Position numbers and translations under genes: made by a program. Below the pieces are notes generated by a model, which did not search any database, had not been told where the DNA came from, and worked only from the letters and a program-made list of their open reading frames with translations. Source: a virus (Duplodnaviria > Heunggongvirae > Uroviricota > Caudoviricetes). From it: a DNA stretch of 15,292 nt. Below are positions 1-14,053 of the stretch, piece by piece; within the stretch, counting starts at the first letter, position 1; each line of letters starts with the position of its first letter. The stretch is from IMG/VR virus record IMGVR_UViG_2675903366_000018. One strand, written 5' to 3'.

Positions 1-200
1 TGTCAGTTATCATCTTCGGTTACGGTTATCGGCAGAACGCCCTGCCGCTGACAAGAGCTTATTTGCCTGACCAATCTACTCCACATGATAGATAACTATC
101 ATTTATAGCATTTGGCTTATTATCCTTTATTTTTCATTGCGTTACAAACAATAAGCTCGTCAAAAACAGTAAAATTAACTACACCATTAACTACACCGTT

Positions 201-231
201 CCACGAACAATATCGAACAACCACGAACAAA
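201..231. repeat. Three direct 10-bp repeats (CCACGAACAA / TATCGAACAA / CCACGAACAA); near-identical second copy at 8429-8460
   Basis: Read directly from sequence: heptamer CGAACAA recurs three times at exactly 10-bp spacing; about 26 of 28 bases match the array upstream of the capsid gene. Confidence 0.8.
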
Positions 232-293
232 GATCAACACGCTTTAATCGTTATCGTTTTCCGGCTATCCGTTATCAAGCTGGTTGATGTGGT

Positions 294-7069: not shown

Positions 7070-8239
7070 CTAGCCAGCTTTCATTTCCAGAATTTTGATG
7101 GCGTTTGAATCCACCACACCACCGCCCAGATATTTATCCGTGTGGACCTTGTAGAATCCGGGTTCAGTAATGTTGTCCGGTCGGGTGCGAATCCCTGTTA
7201 CATGATCAACGATGAAATAACCACGACTGAAATCGCCAACCGCCAGCGGTGCTTTTCCTGCGCCGATGTCCGGCATGGACTCCAGGCAGTAAACAGGACG
7301 ACCAAGCAACATATCCGGCGCACCTTCTTTAAGGCTGTCGCGCCAGATATAATCGCCGTTCTCATTTTTCAGCTTCTGTAGTGTCCCTGCCGTGCCCGAG
7401 TTCATCACCCAGACGGCATTTTTGCGGTATTTCGCTTTCAGCCTGTAGAGAATGTCGATCAGTTCGTCCGCTGTAATGGCGGTTCCACTTGCCGCTATCA
7501 TTTTTTCAATGGTGCCAAAAGCGCGGGTTTTGTCACTGGTCGCTGCACGGGTGTAAGCCATGAAGCCTTTCGGCTTGCCGTTACCGTCGCCATTAACAAA
7601 ATCATCCTCTTCGGTGCTGGCGAACGTGTCGGCAATTTCGGAGGATAACCAGCCCAGAATATCCACCTCTGAAAAATCCAGAATTTCCTGCGTGGTTTTC
7701 GGGTAGGCGTAGATCGGATTCAGCTTGATGGTTACGCGTTCAATTTTCGGGGTGTTGGTTTCGCTGCGCGCGCTGCCTTCTGTGCCTCTTCCTACAGTTG
7801 CGCCGCCAGTGGAAACCAGTTTCTGAAACTCATTTGATTTTGCGGTCTTCACGGTCGCGATCACGCGCATAACACTGTCATCCTGTAGCTGGCGCATGAC
7901 TTCGCGATCAAGCTCAGGAATTACGGTATATCCGCCATCCCTGCCGCTGTCAGTGCTGGTGGATAGTGATCGCACATCTCCGGTTACGATGTAGTTACGC
8001 AATTCATCAGATGATAATTTCCGGATGCCCGTTCCTGGCTTGCTGCGTTCTTCATCAGCCACAGACTCGAGGCGGGAAATTTCTGTGCCGAGGGAATCGG
8101 CTTTTGCACGCAGTTCATCAAACTGTTTGCCCTCGTCATCGTTCAGGCTACGGTTTTCACTGTCGGCTTTTTCCAGCAGGGATCGCATCTGGTTTTTCAG
8201 GGCGTTTTTTTGCTGGCGGAGTTCGATTAATTTCTTCAT
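7070..8239 (-). CDS. Major capsid protein, HK97 fold, with N-terminal coiled-coil (scaffold/delta-like) region
   Basis: 389 aa; the first ~100 residues are heptad-like and rich in E/K/R/L, followed by a capsid-like domain; ATG at 8237-8239. Followed directly by protease and portal genes. Confidence 0.85.
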   Translation of the reverse strand: MKKLIELRQQKNALKNQMRSLLEKADSENRSLNDDEGKQFDELRAKADSLGTEISRLESVADEERSKPGTGIRKLSSDELRNYIVTGDVRSLSTSTDSGRDGGYTVIPELDREVMRQLQDDSVMRVIATVKTAKSNEFQKLVSTGGATVGRGTEGSARSETNTPKIERVTIKLNPIYAYPKTTQEILDFSEVDILGWLSSEIADTFASTEEDDFVNGDGNGKPKGFMAYTRAATSDKTRAFGTIEKMIAASGTAITADELIDILYRLKAKYRKNAVWVMNSGTAGTLQKLKNENGDYIWRDSLKEGAPDMLLGRPVYCLESMPDIGAGKAPLAVGDFSRGYFIVDHVTGIRTRPDNITEPGFYKVHTDKYLGGGVVDSNAIKILEMKAG

Positions 8240-8428
8240 GAAGGTTTTCTCGTATTGGTTAAGATTCAGGACGTGAAACCAACACGGAGGGAGCGCCGCC
8301 CGACACTCTCGGCATCTCGCAGATCAACCCGGCATCGCGCAGGGGTCAGGCGGCATTGTGGCGGCTCACGTCTGAGTGCCACACGCCAACATATACATAA
8401 AAATCAGTATGTAAACATCAGCCAGAAT

Positions 8429-8460
8429 CACCGAACAATCTGGAACAACCACGAACAAAT
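8429..8460. promoter_or_regulatory. CGAACAA direct-repeat array (3 copies, 10-bp phase) ~190-220 bp upstream of the capsid gene; putative regulator binding site for the head/packaging operon
   Basis: CACCGAACAATCTGGAACAACCACGAACAAAT; near-identical to 201-231. Lies in a 275-bp non-coding region upstream of the capsid ATG, flanked by A-tract repeats ACCTGAAAAAAA x2 at 8471-8497. Confidence 0.4.
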
Positions 8461-8513
8461 AATTTACAAAACCTGAAAAAAAGACCTGAAAAAAAATCCA
8501 GGCCTTTATCGCT

Positions 8514-9595: not shown

Positions 9596-9722
9596 TGCGG
9601 GTTATAATCGCACTTTTGCGGGTTATAACTGCCGTTTTGCGGGTTACGTGCGGGTTATTGATTTCCTTTTTATTCATACAGTTAATGCACTTATACACAG
9701 GATAACCCGCATAACCCGCAAC
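9596..9722. repeat. Putative replication origin: 4 direct TGCGGGTTAT iterons (starts 9596, 9617, 9638, 9649), 40-bp AT-rich spacer, 2 inverted ATAACCCGC copies (9702, 9711)
   Basis: Read directly from sequence; 21-bp spacing of the first three iterons; ends 20 bp before the replication gene's stop codon (9743-9745), the usual place for the ori in PICI/SaPI-type satellites. Confidence 0.6.
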
Positions 9723-9742
9723 TTTTCACCTCACACAGGGGG

Positions 9743-11875
9743 TTAATCTTCTGCCTCAGGCTGGAACATCAGCACGTAAAAAACATGCTGCTTCCCCCCA
9801 ATTTTGCCGAGCGCCTTTTTCTTGTAACGGCGATCGTTACCCGCTTCCAGCATTCCGGCAGCACTCAACGCGCGGGCAAAGTGAGACGGATTAAATCCCT
9901 GTGCTATCTCACCCTCAAACACATGCGGGAACGTGTAAAAACGGAACTCGTCATCTTCGTTTCTGATACTCCCCTTTCTGTATCCGGCAAGCTCTTTAAT
10001 CGGTAAATCACGCTCGTCAGAGTTGGGCCAAGGAAGGTATCTGCTGAATCCGAACGACGCTAAAAAAGCCTCTGCCTGTTCAACCATCTGTTTAAACTCC
10101 CTGTTCCCCGTGCCGAACTCCTTCACCCAGGCATTAAAATTATGCTGAATGGCATCGCGGCATTCCTGCTCATCCCAGCCAGTAACATGACCGGAAAGTA
10201 CAAGCGCGGCCTCCAGTATGGCGAATCGTTCCCCCACACGGTGAACCTGTTCGCCGTAGCTCTCCGGTATCAGGTTGCGCCACCGCTCGCGACATGCCCT
10301 TACCGCGTCCTTTGCCTCCTGCTGGTGTTCTGCCAGCCATTTAACCCACTCACGACCTGCCGCCCCGTGATTTTCTGTCCAGGCATCTTTTAACGCGTCT
10401 GCGTGCGCCTTTCCGGTGCTGTATTCGTGAAACTGCGAGGCCTTTTCCATCGGCACGTTAAGCAGACGGACAAGCTGCCCCGCTTTAATTTTTATCCCTT
10501 CCGTTTTGAGGAATGTTTCAACGTCCATTTCTCCGGTGCTGATTGCCACCGTGCGCCAGTGTTTTATCTCCCTGTTGCCGCCGTCCTTCGCCCCCTGTAA
10601 TTTCCCCGAACCGTTAAACAGCGTATAGGCTGACGTGGACACCTCCCGCGCGTTTCCGGCCTGGCCTATTTCATCCAGGGGTAACAGCCCGTCATTATGT
10701 GCTTCGGCCTCGTTGGCGATACCTAACGCCGTTCCGTACCAGGTCAGCCGTTGCGCGTCCGGCTCTCCCCATAAACTGGATGCGATGTTCTGTGTGGTGG
10801 TTTTCCCTGCTGATGACTGTTCGAAAAGATGTACCCCGAAGCCGTCAGCACCCACCAGCCCGATTAATGGTGCTGATAACGATACCGCCACACCCAGCAT
10901 CATGGACGGATTACCACCAGCCAACCGCGCAACGGTATCGCGCCAGCCCTCCGCCGTTCCTGCCTCGGAATAACCATTAACAGCGGCAGTTTTTCCGGTA
11001 AACAGGACTGGCTTTTCGCAATCACCAATGACCGAACCGTCCGGCATGATGTACGCGCCAAAATGCCAGCCCGTTGTTGTGCTTAACTGCCATTCCTCAT
11101 GGTTTCCGCTTAACTGCATCCAGTCAGCCAGGATAGCCCTGTATTTACCGTTGGTTGTCACATTCAGTCCGTGGTCTTTCAGCAGCCGCCAGCCGTCACG
11201 GTCGCCAATGCCCCCACACGGGATCGCCATTGTGATGACTTCATGGTTTGCTGGTTTTTTCCAGCGCATCACGCGGTAATGCTCTTTGCCGATTGTCCCC
11301 GTTCCCAGTAGTTCAAGCGGGGAACATAACCACGTCTCAGGCCGGATAATTTCGCCTGACTGCTTATCCACTTTTGGCGTTACCCAGAAAACACCATCGG
11401 CACGGCTTTCAACGCGGGGCTTTAATTCATCATCACCCGGGCTTGTGGTGGTTTTTTTCTTTACCGGAAGCTTAATTACCAGATCTGCAGAAAGATTCTG
11501 ACGCTCAACGTTCAGATAGCGCCGCCAGTTCTCACATTTCTGACCGTGCATTCCTTCAGGGTAAAAATTCGCATCCTGAATATCTGCCGCCGCCAGCTTC
11601 TGACCGATCTTTTTGGTCTCCACTAAATCCAGTTCTCCGGCCTGGTACAGCCTTACGCGTTTTTTCCCATCCGGAACAATTTTCAGCGCATCAAGTTCGG
11701 CAAGCTGATTTGGCCCAAGCCACACAGGCGGCACATCATCGCCAGATGCGGGGCCGTCCTGCTCCTGCCACTGTTTTGCATGTGCCCACGCATCACTACC
11801 CGCGAAAATAATTACCTCTGTGTCTTTGTGTTTTATTCCGCGTGGTTGTTTTTTTACGTTCGGTGCCAGTTTCAT
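9743..11875 (-). CDS. Replication initiator, primase/helicase-type (Pri-Rep-like), with central P-loop NTPase
   Basis: 710 aa; Walker A GVHLFEQSSAGKTTT and Walker B GLLPLDEIG in the central region; resembles DUF927/primase-associated replication proteins of satellites; ATG at 11873-11875 overlaps the upstream ORF's stop (ATGA). Confidence 0.75.
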   Translation of the reverse strand: MKLAPNVKKQPRGIKHKDTEVIIFAGSDAWAHAKQWQEQDGPASGDDVPPVWLGPNQLAELDALKIVPDGKKRVRLYQAGELDLVETKKIGQKLAAADIQDANFYPEGMHGQKCENWRRYLNVERQNLSADLVIKLPVKKKTTTSPGDDELKPRVESRADGVFWVTPKVDKQSGEIIRPETWLCSPLELLGTGTIGKEHYRVMRWKKPANHEVITMAIPCGGIGDRDGWRLLKDHGLNVTTNGKYRAILADWMQLSGNHEEWQLSTTTGWHFGAYIMPDGSVIGDCEKPVLFTGKTAAVNGYSEAGTAEGWRDTVARLAGGNPSMMLGVAVSLSAPLIGLVGADGFGVHLFEQSSAGKTTTQNIASSLWGEPDAQRLTWYGTALGIANEAEAHNDGLLPLDEIGQAGNAREVSTSAYTLFNGSGKLQGAKDGGNREIKHWRTVAISTGEMDVETFLKTEGIKIKAGQLVRLLNVPMEKASQFHEYSTGKAHADALKDAWTENHGAAGREWVKWLAEHQQEAKDAVRACRERWRNLIPESYGEQVHRVGERFAILEAALVLSGHVTGWDEQECRDAIQHNFNAWVKEFGTGNREFKQMVEQAEAFLASFGFSRYLPWPNSDERDLPIKELAGYRKGSIRNEDDEFRFYTFPHVFEGEIAQGFNPSHFARALSAAGMLEAGNDRRYKKKALGKIGGKQHVFYVLMFQPEAED

Positions 11876-13434: not shown

Positions 13435-13644
13435 TTACGCTGCCTTACCTGAATTAATGCGATCCCGGCTTTTAACCCATTCCATAACCTCGGACAGCAG
13501 CCAACCAACAGAACGACCGCCCAGATTAAGACGTGACGGAAAGCATCCTTTTTTCTCCAGTTCGTAGCGTGTAGTGCGACACACTCCAGTTAACTTACGA
13601 CATTCATCCTCACGGATTACGCGATCTTCATTTATTTCACGCAT
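13435..13644 (-). CDS. alpA: AlpA-family phage transcriptional regulator / excisionase-like HTH protein
   Basis: 69 aa from ATG 13642-13644: MREINEDRVIREDECRKLTGVCRTTRYELEKKGCFPSRLNLGGRSVGWLLSEVMEWVKSR, the AlpA-type HTH pattern. The ORF-track version starts with GTG at 13731 (98 aa) and could be the true start; the HTH position favours the shorter form. Confidence 0.75.
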   Translation of the reverse strand: MREINEDRVIREDECRKLTGVCRTTRYELEKKGCFPSRLNLGGRSVGWLLSEVMEWVKSRDRINSGKAA

Positions 13645-14053
13645 ACAAAAACCTACATAAAAATTACGTATATAAACTTTTCTCTTAGCTGTAGATATAT
13701 GAGATCGGATATTACTTAGATTCTTTTTCACCTCTTAAATTAAAAACACAACCTTGCTAAAGGCTTTGTTCGCTAAGGTTCGTAGAAGCTCGTTAGTGTT
13801 TAAAATCGTGTCACGAGTTTTTAAGCGACGCAACAAAAAATGTCGTCATTTGGCATTACGCTTGAATTATCTCATTAAAAACAAATAGATAAACCATCAG
13901 GTATTGGAACAATCAAGAAATAGCTAATAAGGGTTTAGTAGGGTGCATTTCAATTTTTTCGATGGTTGACAAATAAAAAATTAACGAACTTGACCGATAT
14001 TTAGCGTTTTATTCACGGCTGTAATCTCTTAAAGAAAAAACAGCCGTAATTTG

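Follow-up and report, generated by a model that had tools for sequence, protein, structure and literature searches.

What switches on the capsid genes of capsid-forming PICIs (cf-PICIs), even without helper phage, is a question for which no explanation was found in the literature searched, and it is raised directly by the short spacer that precedes the capsid gene in the element described here. The window (the whole stretch of viral DNA that was analysed, 15,292 nucleotides) is a cf-PICI satellite in which every gene lies on the minus strand (Table 1). The spacer holds an array of short repeats which, all genes being on the minus strand, must be read on that strand as well. Lying there between the stop of the gene for an 88-aa protein and the capsid start, the array had been correctly placed by the original prediction upstream of the capsid operon.

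AlpA, the master switch of Gram-negative PICIs, is among the proteins encoded in the window. The alpA product matches the Pfam family Phage_AlpA (E 1.2e-15), has the PHROG annotation 'excisionase and transcriptional regulator' and is related to PDB entry 8c3t, described as 'AlpA family phage regulatory protein'. Directly upstream of alpA there is a hairpin with a GAAC-N6-GAAC loop followed by a T-run (around 13760-13800 in the window, and also in loci L006, L011, L013 and L019), which looks like a terminator or a regulatory hairpin before the master regulator gene. Near the far end of the element, at 438-589, iteron-like GCGGGTTA repeats are found around an AT-rich stretch. This segment is 82% identical to the EcCIEDL933 region located just 3' of the primase gene (L001 9383-9534), and it looks like a second ori-like region.

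Table 1. Features of the cf-PICI window, with positions counted from its first letter
Feature	Position	Strand	Remarks
Tandem 12-bp repeats, GGTGTAGTTAAT x2	174..197	minus	probable arm-type sites, att arm distal to int
Second array, GTGTTGATCT, TTGTTCGTGG, TTGTTCGATA, TTGTTCGTGG	201..240	minus	4 units at 10 bp
Major capsid gene, HK97 type	7070..8239	minus	Pfam Phage_capsid, E 2.4e-71; first in capsid/packaging operon
Rest of capsid operon		minus	after the capsid gene: protease, portal, head completion, connector, HNH, TerS, TerL
Structured 5' leader of capsid mRNA (predicted)	8240..8383	minus	predicted start to capsid AUG
Spacer, 274 bp	between 88-aa gene stop (8514) and capsid start codon (8239)		holds the capsid-promoter array
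Sigma-70-like promoter (predicted)	8388..8415	minus	TTTACA (8415-8410), 16 nt, TATGTT (8393-8388); 9/12 matches
Capsid-promoter array, TTGTTCGTGG, TTGTTCCAGA, TTGTTCGGTG	8429..8458	minus	three 10-bp units, exact 10-bp spacing
Distal box, TTTGTAAATTA	8460..8470	minus	TTGTAA centred at about -85.5
Intrinsic terminator of upstream (early/regulatory) operon	8472..8507	minus	from RNA fold; 5' arm 8507-8497, loop 8496-8491, 3' arm 8490-8480, U-run 8479-8476
Gene for 88-aa protein (PHROG 1957, phrog_1957)	8780-8514	minus
PerC-like gene	9103-8795	minus
SSB gene	9532-9107	minus
DUF927 primase gene	11875-9743	minus
DUF4222/RgdR-like gene	12159-11872	minus
alpA ORF	13435..13731	minus	probable true start, ATG at 13644
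int	15292-14054	minus	product with Arm-DNA-bind_3 domain

The spacer upstream of the capsid gene

The array reads TTGTTCG/TTGTTCC/TTGTTCG (8458-8429) on the gene strand. It had been described as three CGAACAA heptamers at 10-bp spacing, of which the spacing stands and the identity does not: the plus-strand copies are CGAACAA (8432-8438), GGAACAA (8442-8448) and CGAACAA (8452-8458), the middle heptamer being one base off, and the exact common unit is the hexamer GAACAA x3, that is TTGTTC on the gene strand. The exact 10-bp phasing supports the view that the sites lie on one face of the DNA for an oligomerising protein. Direct head-to-tail repeats about one helical turn apart are also what is expected of the operator of an RDF. 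The TTGTAA of the distal box lies 11 bp upstream of TTGTTC x3, and this box may count as a fourth unit, distal to the promoter, or as a site of its own. The order of elements along the gene strand is AAAGGCCTGGATTTTTTTTCAGGTCTTTTTTTCAGG TTTTGTAAATTA TTTGTTCGTGG TTGTTCCAGA TTGTTCGGTG ATTCTGGCTGATG TTTACA, 16 nt, TATGTT, GGCGT and GTGGCAC, so that a TTTGTAAAT box precedes the array. Readings of the TTTGTAAAT box and of GTGGCAC as IHF and sigma-54 sites were considered by eye and discarded, as the consensus spacing does not fit.

The pattern is uncommon in the window. TTGTTC-N4-TTGTTC with up to two mismatches occurs nine times against 1.9 expected, a number reached in none of 200 shuffles, and its four exact matches all fall within two arrays (8433-8458 and 205-230). 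Scanned de novo for words of at least five letters in three copies 10-11 bp apart, the 15.3 kb gave only two places, namely the capsid-promoter array and the second array near the window start. From its sequence, the array is a real and functional-looking row of candidate protein-binding sites spaced one turn apart.

Downstream, 17 nt separate the array from a weak sigma-70-like capsid promoter. The predicted start site lies near 8381, and from it the units are centred at about -74.5, -64.5 and -54.5. The counterpart of this promoter in EcCIEDL933 scores below the scan threshold; the capsid -10 (TATCTT/TATGTT) is conserved in related loci and a conserved leader RNA starts just after it.

Conservation singles out the array within the spacer. 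It is 100% conserved in EcCIEDL933 and UCPROB, the flanks having diverged, and a three-way alignment of the window, EcCIEDL933 and another E. coli element shows no change in TTTTGTAAATTATTTGTTCGTGGTTGTTCCA-NN-TTGTTC against divergence in the remaining spacer and also in the capsid gene. Of 5,426 E. coli genomes searched, several hundred (around 400) match only an array island of about 51 bp. The exact 28-mer occurs in 62 viral contigs, in 61 of which the capsid gene is just downstream. Among 80 loci fetched by capsid protein from Enterobacterales, Orbaceae and Pasteurellaceae, the TTTGTAAAT box is followed by degenerate TGTT(C/T)-type repeats and then by the conserved -10, the TTTGTAAAT(T/A)AT box keeping a fixed distance from the capsid ATG from Escherichia through Pasteurellaceae. 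Because the units are degenerate outside E. coli, a strict scan for exact triples found few arrays there, and a looser count of phased pairs was used in its place. Across 84 loci, TGTT[CT] pairs phased at 10 bp amount to 1.79 per kb upstream of the capsid gene, 1.76 upstream of int and 0.028 elsewhere, densities which are descriptive and carry no formal probability, as the loci are mutually related; upstream of capsid and int these pairs lie on the gene strand only, with none on the opposite strand. The earlier placement before the capsid/packaging operon thus holds, the strongly conserved repeats occupying about -88 to -52 relative to a weak promoter-like site.

The remaining part of the first prediction, intrinsic bending by phased A-tracts, has to be replaced. 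Bending of this kind calls for several A-tracts phased at 10-11 bp; here there are only two copies of ACCTGAAAAAAA (8471-8482 and 8484-8495) and, being 13 bp apart, they are out of phase with the helix. On the transcribed strand the tracts correspond to the loop and the U-tail of a terminator. In the fold of the RNA from 8507 to 8480 a U6 loop caps a stem of 11 bp and a U-run comes next (dG -14.3 kcal/mol, z -3.59), which is the stable stem-loop plus U-run at the end of a transcription unit that characterises intrinsic terminators. A simple terminator scan missed it because of its loop and T-run rules, and it was RNA folding that detected it. At the same place, close relatives among viral contigs have cleaner stems, GGCCCGGA-TTTTTT-CCGGGCC-TTTTTT and GGCCTGGA-TTTTC-TCCAGGTC-TTTTTTT, in which the stem is kept with differing arm sequences (GGCCCGG/CCGGGCC and GGCCTGGA/TCCAGGTC), and EcCIEDL933 has a canonical terminator (AGCCGGAGCAATCCGGCT-TTTT) directly upstream of the corresponding TTTTGTAAAT box. 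Judged from these folds, the predicted terminator ends the upstream operon and would keep read-through from reaching the capsid promoter. A terminator can in this way be told apart from apparently bent DNA.

The location of the terminator upstream of the box, common to the window and EcCIEDL933, is unlike that in many non-E. coli relatives, where a hairpin with a T-run lies between the phased repeats and the -10 and overlaps the -35 position. GC-rich hairpins with a T-run, 60-100 nt upstream of the capsid leader, are seen in L008, L009, L016-L018 and the Xenorhabdus loci.

The capsid mRNA would begin with a structured leader with two hairpins, P1 (loop GACG) and the long, variable P2, and with a long-range pairing beside the ribosome-binding region. 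In an alignment of 22 distinct versions from 13 genera, three of the nine pairs of P1 (GUGGCA CUCA GACG UGAG CC GCCAC) covary and none is broken, seven of the eight basal pairs of P2 covary, 97.3% of the cells in P1 and P2 are paired, and the observed covariation is reached in 0 of 500 shuffles. The long-range element is a 7-bp pairing of GACGUGA in P1 with an invariant UCACGUC about 100 nt downstream; it is kept in all 22 sequences, three of which have a U-A to G-C exchange. The exchanged base also covaries with its partner inside P1, and covariation of one base with two partners suggests alternative pairings. Besides, the downstream segment can pair with the region just before the AUG. The leader RNA may be a switch, as far as these pairings indicate. 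An Rfam search of the leader, at the gathering threshold and at E<=1, gave no match. In the E. coli relatives H3, H6 and H7 a gene for a ProQ/FinO-family RNA chaperone replaces the 88-aa gene directly upstream of the capsid gene, which is of interest given the structured leader RNA.

Arrays at the att ends and near alpA

The capsid-promoter array has a 17-mer, TTTGTTCGTGGTTGTTC, in common with the second array, located at the other end of the window from int. Three bp after this second array start the two tandem GGTGTAGTTAAT repeats, which EcCIEDL933 has at each of its two ends as well. On the att arm distal to int they are probably arm-type sites for the integrase, because their positions match those of the annotated arm repeats of P4 attP. 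The same composite is present in EcCIEDL933, PEC148 and UCPROB, with phased TTGTnn units followed by two tandem 12-mers, once directly before int and once at the opposite element end, and these three elements have a further array, in opposite orientation, between int and alpA. At the predicted att arms of the window, EcCIEDL933 and PEC148, the arrays therefore lie beside the arm-type sites of the integrase, as RDF sites would be expected to do. Upstream of its own alpA the window has no clear array, and the EDL933-type array found at that place is inverted; both facts count against AlpA as the protein that binds the arrays.

The classical PICI EcCICFT073 was absent among the matches listed from the E. 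coli collection, and the CFT073-type element of strain ZH063 (L148) was used. This element has the int-alpA module in common with the window, plus perC, and its TTGTTC arrays are found at int, between int and alpA (5-6 units) and at the opposite end. At 19119-19372, before its morphogenesis operon, there is no array and the upstream sequence is different, although perC lies directly upstream.

Candidates for the binding protein

Since the array recurs at the excision site of the satellite, it is most likely an AlpA binding site. The TTGTTC array, probably together with the TTTGTAAAT box, can on balance be regarded as an operator of three to four sites for an AlpA-type excisionase/transcription factor, a reading that we find somewhat more convincing than not. 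Published work offers precedents. RDFs recognise direct repeats with a spacing of one helix turn and can have a second role in regulating promoters (PMC7498355, PMC11963761): winged-helix proteins of this type bind head-to-tail, and 186 Apl, P2 Cox, P4 Vis and RdfS also regulate promoters. AlpA activates its own promoter in EcCICFT073 (PMC6092414), and it is needed for the induction of cf-PICIs. On the other hand, no effect of AlpA on Pint was observed in EcCICFT073 in spite of the arrays upstream of int (PMC6092414), which counts against AlpA.

Comparative evidence comes from three loci (L004, L007 and L010) with a divergent integrase. No AlpA homologue was found in them in an AlpA search, and L007, which is annotated, has an HTH_17 Xis-like protein in place of Phage_AlpA. 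Their capsid promoters keep the TTGTAAAT box, but the repeats that follow it are TACTC, and phased TACTC units also adjoin the tandem arm repeats (GGTATCCTAT x2) that these loci have before int; L010 has such units at the other element end too. Capsid-promoter and att-arm arrays thus switch as a pair, and this directs attention to a recombination-module protein. The sites co-vary with a cognate small winged-helix RDF encoded by the element, as expected of an RDF operator, but they co-vary just as well with the integrase, so that comparative data alone cannot separate AlpA from Int. It also counts against AlpA that, in the elements with TGTTC, the AlpA proteins are only 46-100% identical while the motif is unchanged; an alignment of AlpA proteins gave no clear specificity-determining pattern.

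The arrays could accordingly be additional sites for the arm-binding domain of the integrase, with Int rather than AlpA acting at the capsid promoter. The Arm-DNA-bind_3 domain of the window integrase, the presence of arrays on both att arms and their co-variation, just as close with integrase type as with excisionase type, are in line with this proposal. Nevertheless, the positions homologous to the P4 arm sites are occupied by the tandem 12-mers, which differ between integrase types, arrays are also present far from att (at the capsid promoter and alpA) without 12-mers, and head-to-tail phasing at 10 bp is the published signature of an RDF. An integrase operator is for these reasons unlikely, although it is the best placed of the alternatives.

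Slightly less likely is recognition by another protein, be it PerC, the 88-aa phrog_1957 protein or a host regulator of direct repeats. As to the last of these, we presume a resemblance between the array and the direct-repeat sites of OmpR/PhoB-type response regulators such as ArcA, TorR and PhoP. The constancy of the TTTGTAAAT box across modules is as expected of a host-factor site: the box is unchanged where the neighbouring repeats switch from TGTTC to TACTC and, being constant across recombination-module types, it may be a site for something else. A host factor does not, however, explain why the repeats switch to TACTC together with the att arm. PerC belongs to a family annotated as activators and is encoded just upstream, and homologues of the 88-aa protein are widespread in cf-PICIs, but the motif has a much wider distribution than either. 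perC is present in 4 of the 84 loci, all of them E. coli elements, and box and repeats persist in many genera that do not have it; the gene for the 88-aa protein is present in 17 of the 84, and UCPROB keeps the array without it. The site and perC do not co-occur as they would at a PerC-dependent promoter, L148 being a perC-bearing classical PICI that has no motif before its late operon. Both proteins were set aside as binders of the array because of this distribution over loci. The idea of a control point for a regulator of the satellite's own is consequently retained in the form that favours AlpA, PerC having become unlikely. PerC, usually listed as an accessory virulence regulator, would then not be the late-gene activator.

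It is improbable that box and array form the loading site of a processive antiterminator in the style of lambda Q or P. aeruginosa AlpA. The latter works by antitermination after loading onto a DNA element of the promoter (PMC9998450), and many relatives of the window have a hairpin with a T-run between the repeats and the capsid gene. Such a mechanism, which would have transcription start near the TTTGTAAAT box and require read-through of a downstream terminator, is in this form equally doubtful: no hairpin is seen downstream of the array in the window and EcCIEDL933, whose terminator is upstream of the box, there is no credible -35/-10 flanking the box, and the conserved -10 and the leader start lie downstream. 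Furthermore, in a PDB-wide search with the window AlpA (E cut-off 10), 8c3t was the only AlpA-named chain returned, from a library which may lack P. aeruginosa AlpA.

Hardly any weight is given to the arrays being replication-origin iterons like the sites of the P4 alpha protein (GGTGAACAG at ori and crr): P4 iterons do contain TGTTC and are spaced 10-11 bp, P4 ori/crr lie near a late promoter and attP, and some Pasteurellaceae relatives have GTGTTCAC iterons around an AT-rich stretch upstream of the capsid gene, but the window has separate ori-like regions with GCGGGTTA iterons and AT-rich DNA, and the arrays do not track the replication initiator as iterons of the P4 alpha type would. Identical TGTTC arrays accompany three replication modules (the DUF927 primase in the window, another primase in L002 and a RepA helicase in L003), whereas the homologous RepA-type helicase of L007, 56% identical, is accompanied by TACTC. 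With no co-variation between arrays and replication genes, the iteron reading was set aside. Related to this, the Pasteurellaceae relative L074 has at 9670-9790, before its capsid gene, an AT-rich stretch surrounded by GTGTTCAC iterons that point both ways. These seem ori-like and resemble P4 alpha iterons, a caution against calling every TGTTC repeat a regulator site.

A possible control circuit and its known counterparts

If AlpA is the binder, it would occupy cooperatively the head-to-tail, one-turn-spaced sites at the capsid promoter and also, at the att ends, the equivalent arrays next to the arm sites of the integrase, where it would direct excision. Its targets in EDL933-type elements would further include the alpA promoter region, for which autoactivation is published. 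An AlpA oligomer located on the array would activate the weak promoter, and the accumulation of AlpA would turn on the capsid and packaging genes together with excision, the terminator insulating them from the early operon. We infer activation rather than repression from the place of the array, as its position upstream of the -35 suggests. As for sensing of the helper phage at this point, a helper-encoded activator is not required according to published work: capsids form without helper phage, and those of EcCIEDL933 are made by overexpression of alpA.

We tentatively propose, as a possibility that is less secure than the operator itself, a two-tier control of the cf-PICI capsid operon not described before, in which the late promoter carries a copy of an excisionase-type operator of the att arm and a leader-RNA switch acts on capsid translation. 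If the first tier is true, one small protein couples excision to the expression of head and packaging genes with no factor from the helper phage. If the second is true, a 5' hairpin loop (GACG and its neighbours) pairing near the ribosome-binding region could control the translation of the capsid gene. The operator consensus offered here is TTGTTC every 10 bp in 3-4 units, with sites at the att arms, the alpA region and the capsid promoter, and it is predicted that alpA alone induces the capsid promoter through the TTGTTC units. In the literature searched, no definition of a DNA operator for AlpA in PICIs and no account of such an operator array for PICIs or cf-PICIs were found.

Among known systems, P4 offers the first comparison. 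Like the window satellite, it encodes a P4-type integrase and a small winged-helix protein of the AlpA/Vis family, its tandem 12-bp repeats, annotated as 'attP arm sequence repeats', adjoin the int start and recur on the far side of the core, and its regulator has sites at att and at a morphogenesis promoter (candidate sites in the case of the window); P4 Vis is published to bind attP and to regulate late promoters. However, Vis is only remotely related to PICI AlpA, and the P4 DNA between int and core contains no TTGTTC units, so that the P4 Vis boxes are unusable as sequence support. Moreover, the P4 late promoters (PLL/Psid) also need Delta/Ogr, of which no equivalent was seen in the window, and the operon controlled in the window is a complete HK97-type head and terminase set.

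The classical PICIs of the EcCICFT073 type (Fillol-Salom 2018) have the int-alpA module, and activation of PalpA by AlpA is experimental there, but their representative L148 differs in having no array before the morphogenesis operon. Lambda Q and P. aeruginosa AlpA are likewise small, element-encoded factors that act at a promoter-proximal DNA site to turn on late or lysis genes, and terminator-like hairpins occur in some relatives of the satellite. They differ in that the window has its terminator upstream, not downstream, of the sites, and the sites upstream of the predicted promoter. 186 Apl and P2 Cox have direct-repeat operators about one turn apart at att and in a promoter region, bound cooperatively and head-to-tail (PMC7498355), whereas they belong to different protein families and mainly repress face-to-face early promoters. 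Taken by its arrangement, the array of the window most likely belongs to this known kind, the dual-purpose operator of the RDF type.
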